64,000 bases of DNA from the NCBI GenBank assembly GCA_026066175.1, contig GCA_026066175.1_4721.1, one strand, 5' to 3'. The notes below the pieces were generated by a model. That model worked only from the letters and a program-made list of their open reading frames with translations, made no database searches and was not told the origin of the DNA. Below, one piece after another: positions 8,570 through 62,366 of this stretch. The stretch is from a phage. The stretch's first letter is position 1. Every line of letters starts with the position of its first letter. Made by a program: the position numbers and the translations under genes.

Positions 8570-8623
8570 GGCGGTTTCCTTTTTAACTAGGATGATTGCA
8601 TATACAGGGTTTAACGGCATAAA

Positions 8624-8641
8624 CCCTCCCCGGAGGGAGGG
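8624..8641 (-). terminator. GC-rich stem-loop with TTTATGCC tail
   Basis: CCCTCCC / GGGAGGG stem; minus-strand tail TTTATGCCG. Confidence 0.5.
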
Positions 8642-11928: not shown

Positions 11929-11947
11929 GCCCTCCGAAGTGGAGGGC
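11929..11947 (-). terminator. Stem-loop terminator
   Basis: GCCCTCC GAAGT GGAGGGC with a U-rich minus-strand tail. Confidence 0.45.
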
Positions 11948-11955
11948 CTGGTTAA

Positions 11956-12267
11956 TTACTTGTAGAAATGACGTAAAACCGTTGCGATAGGGAACAACCC
12001 TGTAACGGTGTTATCACCCGCGAACATCATGTTCGAACCGTTAACCGTGATGAAACGGATATCGGTTGCTGAACCATCGATGGCGACAAATCGCATCGAG
12101 TTAGGTGGAAGATCTTCAACAACATCCTCCAGGTATTCACGGTTTTCAAACGCTTCTTTAACACGACGCATGAAACGAATCAAGGTTCCTTCAGCATCAG
12201 CTTCCAAATGGCCTAAGGTTTCACGATTGTTACGAATAGCGAATACAGTCATCTTAAACATATTCAT
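11956..12267 (-). CDS. Hypothetical protein
   Basis: 103-aa ORF; preceded by promoter-like motif copy 1 and AAGAGGA. Confidence 0.5.
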   Translation of the reverse strand: MNMFKMTVFAIRNNRETLGHLEADAEGTLIRFMRRVKEAFENREYLEDVVEDLPPNSMRFVAIDGSATDIRFITVNGSNMMFAGDNTVTGLFPIATVLRHFYK

Positions 12268-12338
12268 CCTAGCATCCTCTTGTGTTGGATTGATTTCTAA
12301 ACATCTAGGTGAAGCATATTACTGCTTTGCTTCACCTT

Positions 12339-12370
12339 GGTAATATAGCCGTGAAAATTATTGTATTAGC
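12339..12370 (-). promoter_or_regulatory. Promoter-like motif, copy 1 (GCTAATACAATAATTTTCACGGCTATATTACC on the minus strand)
   Basis: Shares a near-identical core TTTCACGGCTATATTAC with the copy at 43614-43645; lies ~70 nt upstream of the minus-strand start at 12267. Confidence 0.45.
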
Positions 12371-16195: not shown

Positions 16196-16220
16196 TTCTT
16201 TTCCTTCTTATCGGCATAAA

Positions 16221-16239
16221 CCCTCCCATACCGGGAGGG
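16221..16239 (-). terminator. GC-rich stem-loop with TTTATGCC tail
   Basis: CCCTCCC / GGGAGGG; minus-strand tail TTTATGCCG. Confidence 0.5.
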
Positions 16240-33692: not shown

Positions 33693-33766
33693 TTTAGCCT
33701 CCTCTCTTAGCTTCAGAGAATTCTCAAAATCCGTTAGTTTTGATAGACCGAGTAAGACGGCATAAA

Positions 33767-33787
33767 AGCCTCCCTCCATGGGAGGCT
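33767..33787 (-). terminator. GC-rich stem-loop with TTTTATGCC tail
   Basis: AGCCTCCC / GGGAGGCT; minus-strand tail TTTTATGCCG. Confidence 0.5.
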
Positions 33788-33800
33788 TTATTACGATAAT

Positions 33801-41754: not shown

Positions 41755-41794
41755 CGTCACCTCCTTTAATAAGTAGCAGGAATGCGGCATAGAA

Positions 41795-41812
41795 CCCTCC
41801 CCGGAGGGAGGG
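41795..41812 (-). terminator. GC-rich stem-loop with TTCTATGCC tail
   Basis: CCCTCCC / GGGAGGG. Confidence 0.5.
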
Positions 41813-42879: not shown

Positions 42880-43566
42880 TTAACACATGATTTCACCATG
42901 TTTCTTTTCAACATACGTATAAACATCATCCAAATAAGCGATGAGTTTATCACGATTCGCACAAAGCGATTTGATCGTTGCAATCTCTTTCGTATAAAGC
43001 TGCTGGCCCAGGGCTGGATAAGTAATCCAAGCATAACCATCAGGTGCGAACTTAGAGATAAGGTAATCGGCGGTTTCCTGTAATGCGAACTCCTTGCTCA
43101 TCTGGCCGTAGCGGTGTTCGATAGCACGAATACCAAAACGTTCACTATCAAGACGACCCATATCCGCCAAACGAAGAACCTGAGAAGCCACAGAACTACG
43201 TGGACCGGAATACGAAGCACGATGTTCAGCAATGAGTACGCGTATCTCCTCGATATCTTCCGGTGTGAAAATATGTTGCTCATTACGAAGTAAGATAATC
43301 GACGCGCGAATACCGCCAATAAGGTGGTGGTATGTTCTGTTCTCATGACAAGCGATATCATGCATGAACGCTGCGGTTAACAGACGACGGCGTTCAACCG
43401 GTCGAATGATACCAACCACATCAGCAAGTTCATTTGCCAGTTCGACAACAGCAAGGACATGTTCTTCTTGATGGGCAAGATCGTTCTTTTTAATGTTATC
43501 AATAACTTCAGTGCGTGTTTCCTGAGATAAGAAATTTAAGCAGTCTAACGAAAATAAAGATTTCAT
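42880..43566 (-). CDS. Putative HD-domain phosphohydrolase
   Basis: AAFMHDIACHE with His residues upstream; weak call. Preceded by promoter-like motif copy 2 and AAGAGG. Confidence 0.4.
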   Translation of the reverse strand: MKSLFSLDCLNFLSQETRTEVIDNIKKNDLAHQEEHVLAVVELANELADVVGIIRPVERRRLLTAAFMHDIACHENRTYHHLIGGIRASIILLRNEQHIFTPEDIEEIRVLIAEHRASYSGPRSSVASQVLRLADMGRLDSERFGIRAIEHRYGQMSKEFALQETADYLISKFAPDGYAWITYPALGQQLYTKEIATIKSLCANRDKLIAYLDDVYTYVEKKHGEIMC

Positions 43567-43613
43567 CGTACGTACCTCTTTGACTGTATTAATAAATCGT
43601 GTTTACTCACGTA

Positions 43614-43645
43614 AGTAATATAGCCGTGAAAGGATTTGTATTGGC
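43614..43645 (-). promoter_or_regulatory. Promoter-like motif, copy 2
   Basis: GCCAATACAAATCCTTTCACGGCTATATTACT on the minus strand, ~48 nt upstream of start 43566. Confidence 0.45.
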
Positions 43646-43709
43646 ACGTTCGACGTTCATCGTATTTTATGGATTGTCGAATGACGTCATTTTAAGGGAC
43701 ATCCCCGGC

Positions 43710-43745
43710 CTCCTCCCCAGGAAAGGTGTGGGGAGGAGTTTTTAC
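43710..43745 (+). terminator. Plus-oriented terminator-like hairpin with T5 tail, ~30 nt before the SNF2 helicase start
   Basis: CTCCTCCCC / GGGGAGGAG followed by TTTTTAC. Confidence 0.5.
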
Positions 43746-43772
43746 CAGACTTTTATTAATTCGAGTGCGAGT

Positions 43773-45854: not shown

Positions 45855-45861
45855 TTAAGAA

Positions 45862-45890
45862 GCTCTGCCCGAAGGCAGAGCTTTATGCCG
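45862..45890 (+). terminator. Terminator after the SNF2 helicase gene
   Basis: GCTCTGCC CGAA GGCAGAGC followed by TTTATGCCGG. Confidence 0.6.
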
Positions 45891-48749: not shown

Positions 48750-51011
48750 TTACAATTCGAAATCTTCATCGATAACGCGTTGGGTTAGCACCTTGTCGCT
48801 GAAGAACTCCACCTTACGTTGATGGTATTTCCGATGTGCTTCAATCGACGTACACACCAGATACCAGAACGTGGGTGTCATACCCTCGAACTTCCCTTTC
48901 AGCTGACGTAGTCGACCTAACACCTGAATGTTACCAGTTCTCGACCCCATCGCTAACGTCATGAACGTCATCACCAAGTCAGGAAGATCGATTCCTGTAC
49001 CAGCCGATTTTACCGTTGTCACACTGATATCATTATCCAGTAACACCATGAAATCTTCTTCAGCGGTATAAGGACCTATCTCCAACTCAGGGATACGTTC
49101 ACTTAAGTAATGCGATAACGACTTGCACATATCAACGGTTGCACAATACACCAACATCTTCATGCCTTCCTGATATTGGTTCATGAAACCTTTGATAATA
49201 ACCGTATAGATAAAGTTGAAATAGGCGAGTTTGAGTTGCTTATTCTTCATGATAGACTGTTCGAATACCGTGTGAGAATAAGAACCTCCAAAGCCTTTGT
49301 ATCGGACTTTATCCGTACTGCGTAGTCGATACGTCACCGCATTTACCGCGATGTATTTCTTGTATTCACATTTCGCATAACGTGCTTCTTTCGGATACAT
49401 CAAATACAGCATCCGCTCGATGAACGGATCGTCAGACACCGCCGTTGCCGACAGATAAATGATTTCCGGAATATTCGCGTAACACTTCACTTTGAACAAG
49501 AAATGCAGAGCTTCGTGACATTCATCGTGGATTAACAATCCAATGCCTGTTTTCTCCCAGAACTCGACTGGATGGAAAACATAAGGTGCGACACAGTTGT
49601 TCTTTTCATAATCGGTTATATAACGCTGAAACATGTTCAGTGAGAATAACGCAATTTTGAAATCCAACTCACCTTGTTCTACCAACGTCTGAAATTCCAA
49701 CATGCTGTAACGAGGAATGTCGGGATGCGGTGGGTCAGACTGGGCTGTACCACGTATCTCGATAACATCACCTGGTTCCATACCGAAGAAACTTAGCAGT
49801 GAGCTACGCCATCCAGGCATGTACCTCGGTGACAGAATGATGCCCGTCCGTACACCACGTCGGAAGGTGATCTCCTGCGACATTGCGGTGTTGTGCGTGA
49901 CGATATGGTCTTTAATAACATAAAGGCTTTCGTCGTTGTCCACCGTGATGCAACGTGCCTTCGCTTTCACCGTCGGCACGATGCCGCCAATCGCTAAACC
50001 AGGAAGCGTGTTAACGGGAAGATCATCTGGAATCTCAATGCCGTCAGGAATAAGCTTAAGCAAATCGGAATGGTAAATTAATGTCTCCATCGTGTAACTA
50101 TTGATGGGGCATTTATACGCGATTCCCCCTAACCGATAAGCCAACTCCCAGACCTCGGTCATTATCTGCGAATCGGTGGTTCTGACCGCAAGGTGAGCCC
50201 ACCCTTCTTCAACACGCAGCACGCAACGATCTTTGATGAGTTCTCTGAAACGATCAAGACCCACGAGTTCTTTCGGTTCGTAAAGTCGGATTCTTACCGG
50301 ACGAGATCGTGACGATCTGTCATTAAGACGTTCCATGATTTCACTCGTGCTGAGCACCTTGTCAGGATCCGTGCATTGCCAGAGATGATCACCACACGCT
50401 TCAACCATTCGTCCATCTTCAAAGAAGACAGCGTAAAGCTGAATATCGTCATGATCAAAGATAGCAGTTACGTTCGTCGGTAAACCATCCGCGCCGATGA
50501 CCTCATCACCCACCTGGAGCTCACCAATCGGCTTCCAACCGCTTGGAACCTTAACGGGTGTATGGAGAGCCAATGCTTTCCCAGACCCCGTGCCTGCGGT
50601 GTTTAGGCTCATTCTGAAAGGGGTATCCTTACCCCCATCCATGTACTCCAACCATTCTTGCTGATCTTCACGCCACGGAAACTTCCAGTTCTTCACAAAC
50701 TCCACTTCCTTACCTGGAACCGGATCGTGGTAAACGATTTCCAACCACTCCTTTCGAATTCCTCGAGAAAAGATAAAATCCAAAAACGACTTCAGCTGTT
50801 CACGAAGTAAGTAGACCTCGCTATAATCGCTTCTTGCTGCGGCGTAGGTGTTGATGGTATCGGTGACCATTCTCCGTGTACGAGGGTCGCGTCGTTTCCG
50901 TAGATGCAAACAACGGTCTCGAAGGTAATGGCCAATCAAATGGGCAAATCGAAGTCCGTATCCGCTCAGCTTCATGCCATGCGAGAAGACGTCGATACGA
51001 GCTAACTTCAT
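48750..51011 (-). CDS. SF2 (DExH) helicase carrying an intein-like insertion in motif I
   Basis: Host motifs NTAGTGSGK | T (AGTGSGKT after excision), LLIHDECHEA, YLSATA, SAGTGIDLPDLV; about 229 aa inserted between K and T. Confidence 0.65.
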   Translation of the reverse strand: MKLARIDVFSHGMKLSGYGLRFAHLIGHYLRDRCLHLRKRRDPRTRRMVTDTINTYAAARSDYSEVYLLREQLKSFLDFIFSRGIRKEWLEIVYHDPVPGKEVEFVKNWKFPWREDQQEWLEYMDGGKDTPFRMSLNTAGTGSGKALALHTPVKVPSGWKPIGELQVGDEVIGADGLPTNVTAIFDHDDIQLYAVFFEDGRMVEACGDHLWQCTDPDKVLSTSEIMERLNDRSSRSRPVRIRLYEPKELVGLDRFRELIKDRCVLRVEEGWAHLAVRTTDSQIMTEVWELAYRLGGIAYKCPINSYTMETLIYHSDLLKLIPDGIEIPDDLPVNTLPGLAIGGIVPTVKAKARCITVDNDESLYVIKDHIVTHNTAMSQEITFRRGVRTGIILSPRYMPGWRSSLLSFFGMEPGDVIEIRGTAQSDPPHPDIPRYSMLEFQTLVEQGELDFKIALFSLNMFQRYITDYEKNNCVAPYVFHPVEFWEKTGIGLLIHDECHEALHFLFKVKCYANIPEIIYLSATAVSDDPFIERMLYLMYPKEARYAKCEYKKYIAVNAVTYRLRSTDKVRYKGFGGSYSHTVFEQSIMKNKQLKLAYFNFIYTVIIKGFMNQYQEGMKMLVYCATVDMCKSLSHYLSERIPELEIGPYTAEEDFMVLLDNDISVTTVKSAGTGIDLPDLVMTFMTLAMGSRTGNIQVLGRLRQLKGKFEGMTPTFWYLVCTSIEAHRKYHQRKVEFFSDKVLTQRVIDEDFEL
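49890..50576 (-). mobile_element. Intein-like element inside helicase motif I (protein residues ~146-374)
   Basis: Begins ALALHTPVKVPSGWKPIGELQVGDEV and ends CITVDNDESLYVIKDHIVTHN followed by Thr; removing it restores AGTGSGKT. Confidence 0.55.
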
Positions 51012-53047
51012 AACGTGATTACATCCTCCGGTTTAGGTTCTTTACGCGGTAGAAGCATGTAGTCGATCGGATGATCTGGCTTCATGGTTGGGATATAACT
51101 GTTCGGGTTTTGGAACGCATCCAGTTGCTCTTGGTGAGCGAACTTCATACTCAAGGAGCGCATGTTCATGTTCTTCTTGAAGGTACTGAAATAACGAGTC
51201 GTTCCCTGTTTCGGCATGCGGTAATCTTTCGTGTGTGGTGAACGAATCATACTCGCGTAGAGAATAACGTCCAGATGCGATAGATTCATTCGTAAACGTT
51301 GCGCACACAGACGATGCCAATAATACAGTACGTTGGCTACTTCTTCTGGTGTCGCTTCATCTTCCGAAAGGAATCCTGCACTGAACGAACCTTTCCCGAA
51401 TTTGAATTCACGTTCGATTTCTTTTGCGTATTCCATCATGTTTTTATGGATGAGTGGCATCTGGAATAGCGTCCGTGAATTGTCCCAATGTTTCAAGTCG
51501 AAGATCACAATCCCGTCTGCTGTTACTTCCCAGCTATGGCGTTTGAGATAACGGATAAACGCTTTGCTTGGTACAACAGGACGTCCACAGAAATCGAAAT
51601 TGACTTTGAGTTTACGATAGCTCTCATCTTTCCTGTCGTAAATCTCCATATCGCAAAGCGTCATGTTGAACAGACGTTGCGGGATAAGCGAACTGATCTC
51701 TTCCGCTTCAGCTACATCGTACAACATGTTCGCCAGACCGAGTTTCATCTTAATCAGCACGTGTTTGCCTTTCAGCTCACGGGCTAATTTGATGTCGTTC
51801 ATGTTCTGGCTGTAACGAAGGATATGTTGATATTCCGGCGGGATTGGTGACGTAGACACGGTGGACGAACCATCGTGATGTTTGGTCGAAAGAATGTTCT
51901 GGGTAACCTGTTGTGAACCTGTACGTGCTGAGCAGTCTCCGATGTTGTCGGTCAATGCAAAGTTATGGCTTAATTCACCATAGCACGTTGCACAGACACC
52001 AGCAGGATCAGAATGATGACAGTAACAAACGGAACGCATGTTCACAATGGTACCGATCAATTCTTTCATGTGAGGCTGTATCGACAACAGCGAACCATCT
52101 TCACGTAAGATGAATCGACCGTGGAAACCTTTAAGATCGGTTTCATCACGTATCGGCATCGGAATGGTTTCTCTGCTTCCACAATCACCAGGATGCAGAC
52201 GTTGTACAACCGCCGTTGCGATTTGCAGCTCACGTCCGAAATATTCTGACTTCTTAATCTGCTCCTTGTTGAACAACAAAGATTTTGCCGCAGAGCGACT
52301 TTCTTTTAAGCTGTCCGGAAGCGAGATCAAGCCTGCTGCATACGAGCGCATCACTGGGTCACGGAAGATCTCCGAGTTGATATCGGTTAAGAAACCACGC
52401 ATCCCAATACACTGCAATACCTGTCCGATTGACACGTGTTCGGTTCTTACCGCACGTGCGATCGGGTTGGCATGCAATGTTTTATCGGTACTTAAAACTT
52501 TTGTTAGTTTCTTGTATGCGCTCTCAATACCTTCGCGGGTGGGTTCCGCTTCAGCGATGATTTTCTTCACTTCGGGATGTACGGTAATCTGATAAAAATC
52601 ATCCGCACAGATGGTCGTTACGTATTCCTCCAACGCATACGTAAAGAAGTTATAAACGTGGTTAAACATATCGAACAACGCTTTCCAGAGAACCTCACGA
52701 TTCTCTTGCGGATACGCATACATGCATTGACGATAGGCTGCGCTTTGTAATGCAACGGAAGAACCTGCCGTAAACTTGCGTTTATCCACCAGGTTCTCTT
52801 TCGTTAACGGTGTCTCAGGATACATGCGATGTAAAGACCAATGCATGTAGCTAAAGAAAATGCGTCGCGCACGCAATTCATGAACACCATCGTCCATCTC
52901 GATATACACACGGTCATTAGGCTGTGCCCACTCGAACACCTCATCAACCGGCCAATGCATAAGCTCTCGCGCCCGTACACGGCGTTTCGTGGTGATCGTC
53001 TGTACTGTATTCATTATTTTTACTTTCCGATTAAGTGGTTTTATCAT
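51008..53047 (-). CDS. Large hypothetical protein with a Cys cluster
   Basis: 679-aa ORF, ATGA-coupled to the helicase gene; CYCHHSDPAGVCATCYG; no family recognised. Confidence 0.5.
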   Translation of the reverse strand: MIKPLNRKVKIMNTVQTITTKRRVRARELMHWPVDEVFEWAQPNDRVYIEMDDGVHELRARRIFFSYMHWSLHRMYPETPLTKENLVDKRKFTAGSSVALQSAAYRQCMYAYPQENREVLWKALFDMFNHVYNFFTYALEEYVTTICADDFYQITVHPEVKKIIAEAEPTREGIESAYKKLTKVLSTDKTLHANPIARAVRTEHVSIGQVLQCIGMRGFLTDINSEIFRDPVMRSYAAGLISLPDSLKESRSAAKSLLFNKEQIKKSEYFGRELQIATAVVQRLHPGDCGSRETIPMPIRDETDLKGFHGRFILREDGSLLSIQPHMKELIGTIVNMRSVCYCHHSDPAGVCATCYGELSHNFALTDNIGDCSARTGSQQVTQNILSTKHHDGSSTVSTSPIPPEYQHILRYSQNMNDIKLARELKGKHVLIKMKLGLANMLYDVAEAEEISSLIPQRLFNMTLCDMEIYDRKDESYRKLKVNFDFCGRPVVPSKAFIRYLKRHSWEVTADGIVIFDLKHWDNSRTLFQMPLIHKNMMEYAKEIEREFKFGKGSFSAGFLSEDEATPEEVANVLYYWHRLCAQRLRMNLSHLDVILYASMIRSPHTKDYRMPKQGTTRYFSTFKKNMNMRSLSMKFAHQEQLDAFQNPNSYIPTMKPDHPIDYMLLPRKEPKPEDVITL

Positions 53048-53122
53048 ACAGTGTATTCATTCCGTTGGAATTTACTCCGGGAGTCCCTTCCCTTAGGTTA
53101 TATAGGTGTTAATATATCTCGG

Positions 53123-53608
53123 TTATCCTGCTTTCTTCTGAAGGCTATAAGGATCCATCGCATCGGAGCGGTCGGCAACGATGGTAAGAATGAAGCCTTT
53201 TATCTGTCTCACTTCGGTAACCCGGAGTCCCCTATCGTTACGATAAACATTTTCTTCGCCGACCAGTTTTGGTCGAATAACATAAACCCCATCAACGAAC
53301 GGAAACGTTGAATACGGATAAATACCAATACGAATAATATTCGGATGATCACCTCGAGGGTCACGTCCAAACACATCAACTCTACCGTAAATCGTGCCGT
53401 CCGCACCTTCCACTTCAATAAGGTCGTTGCGAATATCCTGAAACAGTTGTTCTAAGGTCTCTACGGGATATGTATAAGCGACGCCTAATGCAACATCCTC
53501 AATGGTCTTAACGCTAAATCCGTTAAGCCAAATAATCCGATCATCTGTCCATGTTTCTTCATACGCTGTTAATCCGTCGCCGTATATGTTGGCGTGTGCT
53601 ATCTCCAT
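53123..53608 (-). CDS. Hypothetical protein
   Basis: 161-aa ORF. Confidence 0.45.
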   Translation of the reverse strand: MEIAHANIYGDGLTAYEETWTDDRIIWLNGFSVKTIEDVALGVAYTYPVETLEQLFQDIRNDLIEVEGADGTIYGRVDVFGRDPRGDHPNIIRIGIYPYSTFPFVDGVYVIRPKLVGEENVYRNDRGLRVTEVRQIKGFILTIVADRSDAMDPYSLQKKAG

Positions 53609-53720
53609 AATCTCATTTCCTCTTCTCTGTTAGGATAAATGACATGCTGGATAACGTTGCCTTTGCATATATTGCTTTATTTCCGTCAGAAATAACGGAA
53701 AATAAAAACAACGGCATAAA

Positions 53721-53752
53721 CCCCTCCCACCTCCACATGGGAGAGGGAGGGT
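53721..53752 (-). terminator. GC-rich stem-loop with TTTATGCC tail
   Basis: CCCTCCCACCTCC / GGGAGAGGGAGGG (imperfect); minus-strand tail GTTTATGCCG. Confidence 0.45.
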
Positions 53753-53757
53753 GTATG

Positions 53758-55033: not shown

Positions 55034-57202
55034 TTAGCTTTCGCAATCATCCGCATCGATGATCTGACCACCAGCAACATTCAACTGGTGATACAATATC
55101 CTCAACGCACGGTTACCCCCAATGGGATACTTCTCGAAGTTGGTCGCAATCGGAATCGCAGAGGGTTTGTCGGTTGCATAGATGCTTTCCGTGATGCTAT
55201 CCACCTGTTTCGGGTTGTTCGCGTAATCCATGAATACGCTTGCGAACCATCCACCGGCGAAGGCGGTGACTTCGCGATGTTCAGATTCACCACAATAACG
55301 TGTTGGTTGCTCTTTACCAGGAGAACTGTACTTATCACTGTTGCTGAGTTTCGACGGCAAACCATGTGCTTGCAGTTTAGGAATACCTACCGCAGACCAA
55401 TCGTTTGCTGTCTTCTCCAACATCATGATGTACGTATCACCAATCGCAATATCGTTCTTGGTGGTTCGCCATTGACCAGAACGACCACGATAGCGTACAG
55501 GGCCTTTCTTCAACGGGAACTCTCGAATCAGGTTCTCCATACGCTCCGAGCCTGCTGCGATACTGTCTGTCGGGATATAGACTTCTGTACCATGGCGTTG
55601 TACGTAACGTAGATGGTCCCATTTATCGTCATCTGTGATACAATGTTTCTCAACAACCTGCTCCACAAACTCAGGACTAACGATATAGTAGTAACGCATC
55701 AATGTGTTCCATGCGGTTTCCAGATCGCCTGCATCCATTACCGGTTTCAGTTCACGCATGATCTGGTCGCCAACACCATTGATATACGGTGCGTTAACAC
55801 GACTTAAACTCATCCTTTTAATTACCGTGCTGTCGTCGAACATAAAGTCCGCAACATTCCCCCATTGGTCTACGGGCATCTCGTCATCTTCCATGATATC
55901 CGTTACGACGAATTTATCACCCGCCATACCGGTAAATTTAAATCCGATACCAGGGACCACATCGTAGGTATACGTGATGGTCACACGCCAGTCATCAAGA
56001 TTCTCCTTACGATAATCACGGGTCGGCAACACATGACGTAGCTGACCGTTCGGATTGCGAATGTCAATACCATGCTCAGCATCAGCGAGGTTCAACCACC
56101 ACATCACCGTCTGATGATGTCTGATGGGTGTACCAGCACGTTCACGTTCGTATTTACGCACCGCATCCTGAATACGGGTATACAGCAGACCGATGGCGTT
56201 TTCATATTTCAGGAATTGACGATACGGAGGACGCATCTTCTCTTCCATCATAATCGCACGCTCGCGGGCTTGACATCCAGAACGACGATGTCGATCGCTG
56301 ACAACATCGATATCCGTTACACGCGCATTCGGCTCAGCGTAAGTGAGATCATCGTAAACATAATCCACACGCTGAAGATTGCACGTCATCATGTCAACGA
56401 CGCTGAGGATAGGATCGATTTCGCGTGTTGCTGCAAGTAACCCATCTTTACGAATACGCTCACCGTTCTCGGGTATTGCTTGATATACCTCGTCATCACC
56501 GTAGAGATTGATTGGGTATCGCGATTTACCTGATGTAATTGTTCGCTTCTCAATACCGGTACTGGTGAAATGCTTCAATACACCACGACGAGCAACACCA
56601 CCATCTTCAATACACTGGTAGAAGCTACCGAAACACACCTTGCAATCGCGACCGTAACCCCACTCGCGTGTTTCTTGATTGATCGCTGGGCTTTCCATCA
56701 AACGAGAATATCGCGGTACAATCTGGCCTCGACGAAGGGAATGGAACAAGTTGGTTGGTCGAAAACGGAAACCGTACTGCTGATGCATGATGTGATGCTC
56801 AGGCACTTCAAGCAAGCGTAGCTCGTGACGGTTACCATCCTCTTGGTTTTCATACAGCACGTAATGCATCGTGTTTGTTTTGATGCTGTTTGCTGTATGT
56901 CCTGGTTGAAACCGCGGAATGATATCTATGATGCGAGATTCAACTGGAAACTCTACTGACCAAGTGTTCTGTCCGTACTGGTATTCAATCCCCGTCGTTA
57001 ATCGGGACGGCTTCGCATCTTTGATAACCAACGCTTGGCTAAGATGTCCACCAAACATCGCAGCGCGCTGTGCTGAGTTATAATGCAATAGCCCGTTAAG
57101 TCCAGTCCCTACACCCGTATACTCCTGTTTAATGGGAATGATTTTACCTTCAGCGATTGCCTGCTTCACAGATTCATAAAGAGGTTTTTCTTTATAATGC
57201 AT
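55034..57202 (-). CDS. Large hypothetical protein
   Basis: Start moved to MHYKEKPLYE (AGGAAG upstream); no family recognised. Confidence 0.5.
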   Translation of the reverse strand: MHYKEKPLYESVKQAIAEGKIIPIKQEYTGVGTGLNGLLHYNSAQRAAMFGGHLSQALVIKDAKPSRLTTGIEYQYGQNTWSVEFPVESRIIDIIPRFQPGHTANSIKTNTMHYVLYENQEDGNRHELRLLEVPEHHIMHQQYGFRFRPTNLFHSLRRGQIVPRYSRLMESPAINQETREWGYGRDCKVCFGSFYQCIEDGGVARRGVLKHFTSTGIEKRTITSGKSRYPINLYGDDEVYQAIPENGERIRKDGLLAATREIDPILSVVDMMTCNLQRVDYVYDDLTYAEPNARVTDIDVVSDRHRRSGCQARERAIMMEEKMRPPYRQFLKYENAIGLLYTRIQDAVRKYERERAGTPIRHHQTVMWWLNLADAEHGIDIRNPNGQLRHVLPTRDYRKENLDDWRVTITYTYDVVPGIGFKFTGMAGDKFVVTDIMEDDEMPVDQWGNVADFMFDDSTVIKRMSLSRVNAPYINGVGDQIMRELKPVMDAGDLETAWNTLMRYYYIVSPEFVEQVVEKHCITDDDKWDHLRYVQRHGTEVYIPTDSIAAGSERMENLIREFPLKKGPVRYRGRSGQWRTTKNDIAIGDTYIMMLEKTANDWSAVGIPKLQAHGLPSKLSNSDKYSSPGKEQPTRYCGESEHREVTAFAGGWFASVFMDYANNPKQVDSITESIYATDKPSAIPIATNFEKYPIGGNRALRILYHQLNVAGGQIIDADDCES

Positions 57203-57233
57203 AGGACTTCCTATTATCGAATTGAGGTACGTC

Positions 57234-57587
57234 ATGTCTAATACGCCCCTGAACGACTTTCTTAAGACAAACCCCGATGACCTCATCCACAACCTTGATT
57301 TCAGGAACGTTGTTGAGATGCATCTGGAATATTTCAAAAATGCCGGTTTGGTTTCTACGATAGACATACCACCCGAACGCGCCTACGAATTCGATGGTAA
57401 CTTTTATGGATTATGTCGGGTTATGCTTGGCGAAGGCAGTGAACCTATGCACTGGGTTACCCTAAGAATCAACGGTTATCGTGATCCTACGGAATACACC
57501 GCCGATGTCCTAACGATGAAGATTGTCGATTCAAGCGCCATCAACACGTTAAAACAGCAATATCGCACAATCCACTACAGCGCTTAA
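57234..57587 (+). CDS. Hypothetical protein
   Basis: Start at MSNTPLNDFL with GAGGT upstream; followed by a plus-oriented terminator hairpin. Confidence 0.45.
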   Translation: MSNTPLNDFLKTNPDDLIHNLDFRNVVEMHLEYFKNAGLVSTIDIPPERAYEFDGNFYGLCRVMLGEGSEPMHWVTLRINGYRDPTEYTADVLTMKIVDSSAINTLKQQYRTIHYSA

Positions 57588-57592
57588 GATAA

Positions 57593-57630
57593 CCCTCCCA
57601 CGGCGTAAAGCGGCGGGAGGGCATTTATGC
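57593..57630 (+). terminator. Terminator after plus-strand gene 57234-57587
   Basis: CCCTCCC...GGGAGGG followed by CATTTATGCCG. Confidence 0.5.
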
Positions 57631-57653
57631 CGTCGTTCGATGCTTTTAGCGCA

Positions 57654-58934
57654 TCAGAAGCGATTTACAGGACGACCTGTCCACGCGTTCAGGATAGTGT
57701 TACGTTCCATCTCAGCGCGACGACGCAGCCCGTTCGGCGTCTGCGGTGCTGGTGGCATCCCCCATCCTGCAGGTTGCGCACCCATGCCTGGCCAAGCCCC
57801 AGTATTGAACATCGTACCGTTACGTTCCGCTACACGGTTCATCAGCATATCGAACGTACTATTACCTCCTGGTTGGTTAGCACCTCCTTCCCACGGATTA
57901 GGTTGAACCGGCGCGGTCTTACCTAACAGGTTATCGATGACATTACCTGATGCAGTAGGACGTGGTTGCATACCTTCATGTGCGGCGGCTGATGGATTTG
58001 GCTTAACCGTAGGTTGCGGTCGACTGTTGAGCGTTACACCCATGTTGTATTTCGCTGGAGGAATCTGTCCGCGATGCTGATTAATCGGTTCAAAGTCCTC
58101 AACCCAGGTAACGTCGCAATACCCATTCTCTTTACCGTCGTACTTATCACCAAACAGTTTGATGAGGTTATTCAACGGTTCCATCAGCTTAGCGAAGCTG
58201 TGGATAAGGCAATCGAAATACGGTGCATGCGGATCGCTTGACCCAGCGTTATACGTTTCACTGACTTCGCTTGCGTGCGGGATAACATACTCAACCAGGT
58301 TTCTCAGCATGTTAAGATCTTTCTTGGAGATCTCAACACCACACCAGTACGTTTTCTTATCTTTCGTGCTGATGTGTTCTTCTTCCATGAACGGGAAAGT
58401 AACAACGGCAACACGGGTCATCTTCTTACCCATGTAGGTTGCACCAGTACGACGAAGATAGATTTTAGACAGCGTATACGGTGTATCACGTTTCAGCCAA
58501 ACGGTAACCAGTTTACCCAGGGTCGTTAACGTCTTATCGCTGGCGTCCGCAAGGATGTTGAAGAACTCTTTCTGCTTCGGACCGAAACGTTTTGCTTCTT
58601 TCGGGTTGATCGCGGTTTCAACCATCCAAATCAGCATGGAGCACAGCGTAGCGTTAAAACGGACAACCATCGCACGACGCAGGAACTGCAGCACTTCCGA
58701 TTCGCCGTTCATCACGTCTTCACTTAACGGATGGAACAGCACACGTTCGGCAAGATGGCTTCCTGTACGCACTTCGGTAACCGGCATCAGCAACGGCATG
58801 CTTTCCACGGTAGCGGCAACTGCAACAACCTTACCATCACCATCTGTAAAGCGGTACTCTAACTCATGAGCATCGTTTTCAAAATAGTTAACGCTTTGTA
58901 GCGCTTTACGATAAGCTTCAATAAGCTTCGACAT
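57654..58934 (-). CDS. Hypothetical protein with Gly/Pro/Asn-rich C-terminal region
   Basis: 426-aa ORF; low-complexity C-terminal third. Confidence 0.5.
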   Translation of the reverse strand: MSKLIEAYRKALQSVNYFENDAHELEYRFTDGDGKVVAVAATVESMPLLMPVTEVRTGSHLAERVLFHPLSEDVMNGESEVLQFLRRAMVVRFNATLCSMLIWMVETAINPKEAKRFGPKQKEFFNILADASDKTLTTLGKLVTVWLKRDTPYTLSKIYLRRTGATYMGKKMTRVAVVTFPFMEEEHISTKDKKTYWCGVEISKKDLNMLRNLVEYVIPHASEVSETYNAGSSDPHAPYFDCLIHSFAKLMEPLNNLIKLFGDKYDGKENGYCDVTWVEDFEPINQHRGQIPPAKYNMGVTLNSRPQPTVKPNPSAAAHEGMQPRPTASGNVIDNLLGKTAPVQPNPWEGGANQPGGNSTFDMLMNRVAERNGTMFNTGAWPGMGAQPAGWGMPPAPQTPNGLRRRAEMERNTILNAWTGRPVNRF

Positions 58935-60577: not shown

Positions 60578-62164
60578 TTATTTTTTTCCTCTTAAATTTA
60601 CTACATGTTCATTTAATCGAACAACTAATTGCACAAGCTGCTGACGGATATCTGCTGGGCAAAGCATCAATCCTTTACGATCAGCGGGGACTTTCTCAAG
60701 GATTTCAGGGCCTGCTGCTGAAACATCCCAATCCCATTCACAAAACGCATCGGCTACCATGTTAATACCGACAACCGGTAAAGTTGTACGTTCATCTTCA
60801 TACATGGCATGCGGATACAATTTATTGACGGTAATAATCTCCTGTGGTTTTAATTGGTGGATAATCTGATAAACATCATCACGTTTAACCTGGATGCCTA
60901 CGGTTAATGCGGCCAGTTGAGGGAAACCCCAATGGTCTAACAAGCATGCCGCAATCGCTAACGCTTTTGCCTGATGCACGGCTTCAATCGGTGCCAGACT
61001 TCTCGCCGGAAGATGGCTGTCCAACAACCATTGCGCCAGTGCTCGGCATCCGCGATTGATCGGTTTTAACTCAACGGTATCATCATGCTTCGCGTAGGTG
61101 TATCCGTCGTAACGTTTTGCGATACGCGCATACATGTCTTCAACCTTACCGTACGGTGCGGTTTCATCAACGTCGTGTAACACCCGTTCCATCTGGGTAA
61201 GATAAGCGATATCAAGAATGAGTACACGTGGTGAACGTTTATCTTTCACCATCAGCGCATCAATCACACCTTGGCTATCTTCATCTTGCGCATTCCCTCG
61301 CGGAGTTTTCTCACGTATGGGTCCGCTGAAACGACGTTCCGTACAGAGGTTATTCACATAACTGAAAATCAGCGTCACCAGATGCGTACAACTGACCAAC
61401 ACCCCATCTTTAACGACGGGCTGCACGGCTTGGTCCAAATCACGTACCGCAAGGCGTCTGACGATGGCTTGCGAACGCAACCAACCCGGCACTTTTTCTG
61501 TTGACATGTAATCCACGGTCATCGACAACGTGATCTTTTTATCGCCTGTCTGTGCACGGATATAGTCTTCCAGTCGGTCATAAGCTGCGATATCATGAAT
61601 GCGTGTTTTATACATCAGCGACATCGCCACTTCTTCTTTACGTACTGTCCCGTACGTTTTCCCCGCATCAATCAGGAACTCAGCCCAGATAGGCACCATC
61701 AAACGAACGTAAATCGCTAACGCGGTTAACTCAACATAATCGTTTCGTAAATAGGTTTTCTCTGGGATATCATCCTCGCCTAATGTCGTTTTCATATCCG
61801 GCGGTAATTTTACCCAACCTGGGGTATTACACAACGCCAGAATCTCTTCGTATACAACAGGTTTGTAGATTTCACCAACAGCGCGGCTCAGCTCCTCCAT
61901 TTGTTGTTGTGGCGCAATGTAATTATCCATCGCTTCACGTGCTTTAACGAACCCTTCAAAGATATCATCGGTTCGACGTGGGTTCTTTTGCTCTATCCAG
62001 GCAAGATACTTGTTAATCTCTCGCATCTGATTGCTGGCCATATCCCCATCGATCTTGATATACCCTTGGCCTGAAAATTCCACGGTACGTCCATCACGAT
62101 GTTTGATAAGATAATGGTCTAGCTTTTCTTTGCCTTGCGTCGTAATGACGGGCACAATGTGCAT
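60578..62164 (-). CDS. Hypothetical protein
   Basis: 528-aa ORF; preceded by promoter-like motif copy 3 and AAGAGG. Confidence 0.5.
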   Translation of the reverse strand: MHIVPVITTQGKEKLDHYLIKHRDGRTVEFSGQGYIKIDGDMASNQMREINKYLAWIEQKNPRRTDDIFEGFVKAREAMDNYIAPQQQMEELSRAVGEIYKPVVYEEILALCNTPGWVKLPPDMKTTLGEDDIPEKTYLRNDYVELTALAIYVRLMVPIWAEFLIDAGKTYGTVRKEEVAMSLMYKTRIHDIAAYDRLEDYIRAQTGDKKITLSMTVDYMSTEKVPGWLRSQAIVRRLAVRDLDQAVQPVVKDGVLVSCTHLVTLIFSYVNNLCTERRFSGPIREKTPRGNAQDEDSQGVIDALMVKDKRSPRVLILDIAYLTQMERVLHDVDETAPYGKVEDMYARIAKRYDGYTYAKHDDTVELKPINRGCRALAQWLLDSHLPARSLAPIEAVHQAKALAIAACLLDHWGFPQLAALTVGIQVKRDDVYQIIHQLKPQEIITVNKLYPHAMYEDERTTLPVVGINMVADAFCEWDWDVSAAGPEILEKVPADRKGLMLCPADIRQQLVQLVVRLNEHVVNLRGKK

Positions 62165-62218
62165 AACAACCTCTTTTCGCGGTTCCCTGTTAAACGTTTT
62201 CTATAACGCCATCAAGGA

Positions 62219-62250
62219 GGTAATATAAGCGTGAATAATTTTGGATTCCT
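62219..62250 (-). promoter_or_regulatory. Promoter-like motif, copy 3 (degenerate)
   Basis: AGGAATCCAAAATTATTCACGCTTATATTACC on the minus strand, ~55 nt upstream of start 62164. Confidence 0.35.
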
Positions 62251-62366
62251 GCTGAGTCATCGCTCAGCATGCAAGGCATCCCGCCGAAGCGAGACACCTT
62301 GCACTAACGGAAAATACTCGCGTTACCTTCTGAATCGAAGACCCAGAATGCGATACTAAAGCATCA

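Follow-up and report, generated by a model that had tools for sequence, protein, structure and literature searches.

Three copies of a 39-nt block recur in the 64,000-nucleotide stretch of phage DNA analysed here, which is referred to as the window. Very probably they serve as early promoters, belong to a jumbo phage of the Goslar-like, nucleus-forming kind and are read by the virion RNA polymerase (vRNAP) that it injects. We infer the vRNAP as the reader, a conserved G as +1 and the early expression of the downstream genes. The promoter class is a known one, present here in the lineage of Escherichia phage Goslar, for which no explicit description of early promoters or of their motif was found in the literature consulted.

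The repeat family and its position in the window

An unbiased repeat search ranked the 39-nt block first among the direct-repeat families of the window, with the other two copies 79% and 67% identical to copy 1 over the 39 nt. All three copies read on the minus strand and are intergenic, facing the minus-strand starts at 12267, 43566 and 62164, each preceded by AAGAGG, at gaps of 72, 48 and 55 nt from motif to start codon. The preliminary description of this DNA had reported a three-copy motif of one orientation, 48-72 nt upstream of these starts with their AAGAGG, identical over 17 nt in two copies and degenerate in the third, and all of this is borne out. The 17-mer TTTCACGGCTATATTAC is exact at 12340-12356(-) and 43615-43631(-), and its version in copy 3, ATTCACGCTTATATTAC at 62220-62236(-), carries 3 mismatches; when up to 3 mismatches are allowed, the window holds 3 matches against 0.21 expected. 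The motif had been described as ~30 nt long, and that block is real, but conservation reaches further downstream, to a T-G(A) that is invariant 6-8 nt past TATATTAC in all three copies. The copies, read on the minus strand, and their predicted starts are as follows.

12332-12370, minus strand: copy 1, predicted early-type promoter; upstream TAATACAA, then TTTTCACGGC, core TATATTAC at 12340-12347; reads aataattTTTCACGGCTATATTACcaaggtGaag
12333, minus strand: G, predicted start of copy 1; 66-nt leader to the ATG at 12267
43607-43645, minus strand: copy 2, predicted early-type promoter; core TATATTAC at 43615-43622; reads aaatccTTTCACGGCTATATTACttacgtGagt
43608, minus strand: G, predicted start of copy 2; 42-nt leader to the ATG at 43566
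62212-62250, minus strand: copy 3, predicted early-type promoter; degenerate upstream half ATTCACGCT, core TATATTAC at 62220-62227; reads aaaattATTCACGCTTATATTACctccttGatg
62213, minus strand: G, predicted start of copy 3; 49-nt leader to the ATG at 62164

The 8-mer core TATATTAC is exact in 3/3 copies and is found nowhere else in the 64 kb. As a bare 8-mer it is not enriched, either in the window (3 against 2.33 expected) or in Goslar, and the argument is therefore not built on it; the signal lies in the flanks, the strand and the position. The extended core TATATTAC-N5-TG is observed 3 times in the window against 0.16 expected, a count reached in 0/100 shuffles; the T-G stands at +6/+7 after the core at all three sites, and its G is the +1 predicted at the sequence level. 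In a position-weight scan the three copies scored 46-50 bits, while the next site scored 20 bits and the shuffle maximum was 10.8. Further copies were sought at 1 mismatch to TATATTAC-N5-TG, and the 5 extra sites obtained were rejected, being at chance level, mostly coding and not promoter-like.

The exact core TATATTAC thus marks three sites only, all intergenic and co-oriented with the next gene. Intergenic DNA makes up ~8% of the window under a crude gene model, so that three of three intergenic copies would be improbable by chance (P ~5e-4). Copy 2 sits in a 206-nt divergent gap between an HD-hydrolase gene (minus) and an SNF2-like helicase gene (plus, start 43773), and copy 3 lies in the gap that separates the gp67-like gene from the gp68-like one. 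Copy 2 seems at first to run into the plus-strand helicase ORF, but this was dismissed as an artefact of a GTG-extended ORF, the true start being 43773, as in Goslar.

Several other elements were observed around these positions. The only other above-noise site of the position-weight scan lies at 53090-53125 (-), with core TATATAAC at 53097-53104 (20 bits), within the 75-nt gap immediately upstream of the gp74-like gene for the beta' subunit of the non-virion RNA polymerase (nvRNAP). Around 53104, the segment gagatatattaacaccTAyATAACctaagggaaggga is kept in Goslar, where the core reads TACATAAC, with two core mismatches; this site could be a weak promoter or one of a different class, and it is uncertain and was not counted as a copy. 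The divergent gap at 43567-43772 is almost invariant among this phage, Goslar and one IMG/VR relative. It contains, at 43700-43740, a 10-bp hairpin (CTCCTCCCCA...TGGGGAGGAG) upstream of both divergent genes (HD hydrolase, minus; helicase, plus), whose ortholog the Goslar record lists as a terminator on the plus strand, an unexpected annotation where promoters diverge. Another hairpin, GGTGAAGC(A)...(T)GCTTCACC at 12308-12336 (-), begins at the predicted +1 of copy 1; its stem is kept in Goslar and UViG_3300011560, its loop is variable, the whole-leader fold has an unremarkable z-score of -0.9, and it could serve as a stem-loop that stabilises the 5' end. The interval 62250-62305 (-), which separates the gp67/ChmC-like gene from copy 3, holds a very stable 16-bp hairpin with a UUCG loop and a second hairpin of 6 bp (-36 kcal/mol, z = -5.3). 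Both are nearly the same in Goslar and have no T-tract after them; they may act as a terminator or a 3'-end protector for the upstream transcript.

The phage and the predicted transcription units behind the copies

Megablast of the window gave Escherichia phage vB_EcoM_Goslar as the sole match, at 80% nucleotide identity in the variable part. The gene order tracks Goslar from ~101 to 163 kb, and the helicase is 98-99% identical in protein. On the minus strand, the genes between 63931 and 48750 follow the order of phiKZ gp66, gp67, gp68, gp69, gp70, gp71/73, gp74 and gp75, and three window proteins match chains of the solved phiKZ nvRNAP. Taken together, the Goslar synteny, the phiKZ collinearity and the nvRNAP matches identify a phiKZ/Goslar-type jumbo phage that forms a nucleus (Chimalliviridae). 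Both polymerases of a two-RNAP phage are accounted for, since nvRNAP subunits are encoded in the window and vRNAP genes, located outside the window, are annotated in Goslar; by analogy with this relative, the present phage presumably has vRNAP genes of its own. No gene for a T7-/N4-type single-subunit RNAP was found among the proteins examined, and to our knowledge the motif is unlike the promoters of T7- or N4-type single-subunit RNAPs. The units facing the three copies comprise the following features.

11956-12267, minus strand: first gene of unit 1; 103-aa hypothetical protein, homologue of Goslar_00105
11929-11947, minus strand: GC-rich hairpin GCCCTCCacttcGGAGGGC, then TGTTATG, immediately past the copy-1 gene's stop codon; recognised from sequence only
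42880-43566, minus strand: first gene of unit 2; 228-aa HD-domain phosphohydrolase, homologue of Goslar_00159
41785-41812, minus strand: hairpin CCCTCCCTCCGGGGAGGG (41795-41812), then TTCTATGCCG; first terminator-like element past copy 2, after three genes
60578-62164, minus strand: first gene of unit 3; 528-aa homologue of PHIKZ068, the sigma-like fifth subunit of the nvRNAP
55034-57367, minus strand: nvRNAP beta-like subunit, a PHIKZ071- and PHIKZ073-like fusion (7ogp_C, 6.7e-86), downstream of copy 3
51008-53047, minus strand: nvRNAP beta'-like subunit, PHIKZ074-like (7ogp_D, 1.1e-85), further downstream in the same orientation

The 103-aa product of the copy-1 gene has no Pfam match and no PHROG match, and the hairpin at 11929-11947 looks terminator-like and may end transcription unit 1. 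In unit 2 the HD phosphohydrolase gene is followed by a hypothetical gene and then by a metallophosphoesterase gene, with Pfam matches in the unit to PF01966 (1.5e-7) and PF12850 (4e-7). The first product of unit 3 matches PDB 7ogp_B and 9rjs_B over its full length (E ~6e-28) as well as phrog_3209, and aligns with phiKZ gp68 in blastp at 4e-33, the amino-acid identity between the gp68 homologues being only 24%. Copy 3 is placed at the head of the nvRNAP cluster (gp68-, gp71/73- and gp74-like genes), which fits the known logic whereby the vRNAP transcribes the nvRNAP genes.

A second recurrent element of the window consists of a GC-rich hairpin, often CCCTCCC...GGGAGGG, followed directly by TTTATGCCG.

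8615-8641, 16212-16239, 33758-33790, 41785-41812 and 53712-53753, minus strand: hairpin followed by TTTATGCCG
near 45860-45890 and 57600-57632, plus strand: hairpin followed by TTTATGCCG

The window has 7 copies of the 9-mer TTTATGCCG, where base counting predicts ~0.5; in Goslar 8/9 copies follow a hairpin, and in phiKZ one does (62639). At three or more sites (8620, 33779, 41790) the next gene uses the ATG within the motif as its start codon, and there the 3' arm GGGAGG stands at Shine-Dalgarno distance. From this arrangement, the hairpin with TTTATGCCG could act both as a transcription terminator and as a mask over the ribosome-binding site that follows. The element appears to resemble the conserved terminator motif reported for phiKZ and 201phi2-1.

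At the far end of the collinear genes, the gp75-like SF2 helicase (ORF 48750-51011, minus) is 98-99% identical to Goslar_00164 outside an insertion of 227 aa (49893-50573, minus), which is absent from Goslar and lies exactly within Walker A (GTGSGK/ALALHTPVKV...VIKDHIVTHN/TAMSQ, slashes marking its borders). The insertion has no Pfam match; its HN-T end and Hint-like start suggest an intein that would start with Ala, not Cys.

Conservation and kinship with known early promoters

Exact copies of the 17-mer number four in Goslar, four in an IMG/VR contig of 237.5 kb, three in a 183-kb contig and one in a 42-kb contig, and IMG/VR scans with the 17-mer and with a degenerate pattern of the class returned Goslar, two Goslar-like contigs and the 42-kb contig. 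The last is an unrelated viral contig with dissimilar flanks (IMGVR_UViG_3300004369_000909, 1368-1384), and its match is probably due to chance, given the size of the collection. In the Goslar genome TATATTAC occurs 10 times, always on the coding (minus) strand, and TATATTAC-N5-TG picks out exactly 8 sites, on the coding strand and 30-100 nt upstream of annotated minus-strand genes; the N5-TG requirement thereby retains the 8 promoter-like sites and loses 2 coding ones. Its effect in the first 100 kb of phiKZ is to retain 10/14 TATATTAC sites, all intergenic. As the T-G spacing had defined the search pattern, the test in the relatives is one of selectivity.

The Goslar orthologs of copies 1, 2 and 3 lie at 113797, 142800 and 160791, and one further Goslar site is found 80 nt upstream of Goslar_00189, i.e. 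chimallin, identical to PDB 7sqt. The copy 1 site is conserved in Goslar and UViG_3300011560, where the longest invariant intergenic run is TAATTTTCACGGCTATATTAC, a phylogenetic footprint, and the 6-nt spacer of copy 3 varies in three relatives (ctcctt, ctttgt, ctctat) with the T-G retained. Sixteen non-redundant Goslar-like sites give the consensus tAat.cAa.a.ttTTCAcGgcTATATTACcTa.gTGA, in which the upstream box and the T-rich stretch that precede the core (tAat.cAa.a.ttTTCAcGgc) align with the phiKZ and 201phi2-1 consensus. The GC-containing CACGGC segment is specific to the Goslar lineage, and within IMG/VR the GC-containing TTTCACGGC upstream of the core is confined to Goslar-like genomes, bar one probably chance match.

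In the first 100 kb of phiKZ, the 10 occurrences of TATATTAC-N5-TG are all on the plus (coding) strand, intergenic and co-oriented, just upstream of gp5, gp6, gp10.1, gp31, gp36, gp41.3, gp54 (chimallin), gp58.1, gp68 and gp76. The site at 57984 lies in the gp67-gp68 gap, the same gap as that of window copy 3 and its Goslar ortholog. The consensus read from these sites is tatT.AAA.aaaTTTaA....TATATTACtAA..TGa, and the predicted phiKZ promoter in the literature is TATATTAC (PMC7058600 Table 2), so that the 8-nt core of the window is identical both to the phiKZ sites and to the published motif. Differential RNA-seq of phiKZ revealed an extended -10 box together with a T-rich motif upstream of -19, with the early promoter motif at the primary transcription start site (TSS) of PHIKZ054 (PMC8244752). 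The likeness to phiKZ includes the T-G 6-7 nt downstream of the core, the T-rich segment directly upstream of it, the A/C-rich box near -30, and the intergenic, gene-facing placement upstream of chimallin (at the Goslar site) and in the gp67-gp68 gap. Unlike phiKZ, which has TTTAAACAG or TTTGAGATC above the core, the three window copies have the GC-containing TTTCACGGC; the TSSs are mapped in phiKZ and predicted in the window, and the sites are much sparser than in phiKZ (3 per 64 kb in the window, 8 per 237 kb in Goslar; phiKZ has 10 per 100 kb). The published number of vRNAP-dependent early promoters in phiKZ is 28-32 per genome (Ceyssens 2014, as cited in PMC7598289 and PMC8244752; Wicke 2020, PMC8244752).

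Early promoters of Goslar and phiKZ alike have an upstream half of one of two forms, a CAAAC/CAACA type (..aatCCAACAtttTTCACGGC in Goslar, attCAAACAtaTTTAAACAG in phiKZ), which is the sole form in the window, and an A-run type (attGAAAAAAAtttCAGGgt in Goslar, atGAAAAAAAtTTGAGATy in phiKZ). The chimallin promoter is of the A-run form in both phages, and the variant is not conserved by position, as the gp68 promoter is of the A-run form in phiKZ and of the other type in the window.

The agreement extends to further jumbo phages. The 201phi2-1 motif, TTAWTAVAA_HYWTTTRARR_BTATATTACDWHDGTG (PMC7058600 Table 2), belongs to a predicted/mapped early promoter (PMC7058600; PMC11512511) with whose whole ~35-nt layout the block aligns: TAATACAA corresponds to TAWTAVAA, followed by the TTT run, TATATTAC and N4-GTG (consensus TTAWTAVAA..TTTRARR.TATATTAC....GTG). 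The differences are TTTCACGG in place of TTTRARR and an enterobacterial host, not Pseudomonas. The OBP and N1M2 motifs end in ..KATATTATYWWADTG (PMC7058600 Table 2). In AR9 the early consensus AAATATATATTAT-(6N)-G+1 is active without protein synthesis and is assigned to the virion RNAP (PMC5312081). The block shares with it the TATATTA core, the 6-nt spacer, the initiating G and the placement at early genes, but AR9, a Bacillus phage with uracil in its DNA that falls outside the chimalliviruses, has T, not C, after TATATTA and a longer AT run. For phiKZ and phiR1-37, the distance from the element down to the TSS is 6 nt (PMC5312081). More generally, every RNAP-encoding jumbo phage is reported to have a conserved ~10-nt AT-rich motif at about -10 upstream of its early operons, which proved to be an early promoter where tested (PMC7598289). 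The preliminary description was thus right to see a promoter-like, phage-specific element, an assignment that the behaviour of the motif supports, but it missed that the class is already described, with the phiKZ core TATATTAC (PMC7058600).

The orientation of the sites bears on the proposal that the block is a conserved non-promoter element, whether bound by a regulator of the phage, active as a 5' RNA element or used as a target of recombination/homing. Intergenic repeats can serve many roles, and a conserved hairpin follows copy 1; but the sites face the downstream gene without exception (21/21 in three genomes: window 3/3, Goslar 8/8, phiKZ 10/10), the leaders of 42-66 nt have promoter-like lengths, and phiKZ sites of the same type are reported as mapped early promoters, all of which makes such a role extremely unlikely. 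A shared RNA structure in the 5' leaders was also considered; the three leaders fold differently, with unremarkable z-scores, and as they have no common fold the RNA-element explanation was rejected.

Many phages transcribe their early genes with the host RNA polymerase, and the block contains a -10-like TATATT hexamer that matches TATAAT at 5/6 positions, at a promoter-like distance from the downstream genes. It could on this basis be a promoter of the sigma-70 type, read by the host polymerase, perhaps in a modified form or with the help of a phage factor. We consider this highly unlikely. A -35 element at 16-18 nt and an extended -10 TG are both missing; at a spacing of 17 nt stand the hexamers GCTAAT, GCCAAT and AGGAAT in copies 1-3, none of them TTGACA-like, and a sigma-70 consensus scan called the motif at 0/3 sites, its few calls elsewhere being at chance level. 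These results confirm the earlier remark that TATATT comes without a usable sigma-70 -35. Moreover, the conserved positions fall outside sigma-70 contacts, namely the C after TATATTA, the T-G at +6/+7 and TTTCACGGC immediately upstream, and the core is common to phiKZ, a Pseudomonas phage that transcribes its genes independently of the host RNAP. The suggestion of a modified host polymerase as the reader is unlikely because a sigma-70 -35 element is missing, and that of a phage-encoded factor is likewise probably wrong; the vRNAP is favoured.

A promoter for the nvRNAP (middle or late), or a dual promoter for both phage polymerases, would account for the T-G at the predicted start, which recalls how the late motif of phiKZ, T(-3)ATG(+1), ends, some sites reading ATG or GTG, and AR9 offers the precedent of genes that carry both early and late promoters (PMC5312081). 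However, late promoters of phiKZ show no conservation upstream of T(-3)ATG(+1), and its middle promoters have an AT-rich/TACT motif near -22 to -24 (PMC7598289; PMC8244752). The block resembles neither, having ~35 nt of upstream conservation and no TACT/A-repeat motif. It agrees instead with the early consensus of phiKZ, 201phi2-1 and AR9, and precedes chimallin (in Goslar) and the nvRNAP genes, which are needed before the nvRNAP exists. An nvRNAP or dual promoter is therefore very unlikely.

Proposed mechanism and its meaning for Goslar-type phages

Early genes of phiKZ-type jumbo phages are transcribed by a virion-packaged multisubunit RNAP, independently of the host RNAP and of new protein synthesis (PMC5312081; PMC7598289; PMC10541120). 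Mass spectrometry of purified Goslar virions showed all five vRNAP subunits, and one vRNAP subunit, tagged with GFP, colocalises with the DNA that is injected. When Goslar is arrested at the early pre-nuclear vesicle stage, chmA, picA and chmC transcripts are at near normal levels (PMC10541120). The copies are where the heads of early operons would be expected, being intergenic and co-oriented, with the position of copy 3 conserved in phiKZ and the same motif at the Goslar chimallin gene.

We propose that the vRNAP would recognise an element of ~35 bp in three parts, i.e. a TAAT(A/C)CAA-like box near -35, the T-rich TTTCACGGC segment from about -25 to -15 and the near-invariant TATATTAC from about -14 to -7. 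The conserved G that stands 7 nt past the C of TATATTAC would be the first transcribed base (12333, 43608 and 62213), and transcription would proceed leftward on the minus strand into the three units with starts at 12267, 43566 and 62164. Unit 3 would deliver the gp68-like sigma-like subunit and then the gp69-, gp70-, gp71/73- and gp74-like products, a cluster that would encode the second, non-virion RNAP, which would take over middle and late transcription.

Some observations run counter to this scheme. Only 8 such sites are found in Goslar, while 175/249 of its genes are detected 5 min post infection (PMC10541120), which would call for very long operons or other types of early promoter. Also, the GC-containing TTCACGGC segment departs from the 'AT-rich' description given for other lineages. 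A possible, though rather doubtful, extension of the scheme is that the Goslar lineage (Goslar, the two IMG/VR genomes and this phage) swapped the AT-rich segment for a fixed TTTCACGGC and makes do with few promoters (~8 per 237 kb), through a shifted specificity of the vRNAP or of a co-injected factor, or that the two upstream variants are distinct early sub-classes.

Conceptually, the three copies add nothing new; they are an unexceptional instance of an element already known, here in a Goslar-like phage of E. coli. Their value lies in a sequence-level map of the early starts to be expected in this part of a Goslar-like genome, with predicted +1 positions at 12333, 43608 and 62213, and in the lineage consensus TAATMCAA-N4-TTTCACGGC-TATATTAC-N5-TG, which is usable for annotating early operons in Goslar-type coliphages and for driving early expression in engineered phages. 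Lineages that share the same core and differ in the upstream half also provide modestly useful comparative data on how virion RNA polymerases recognise their promoters.
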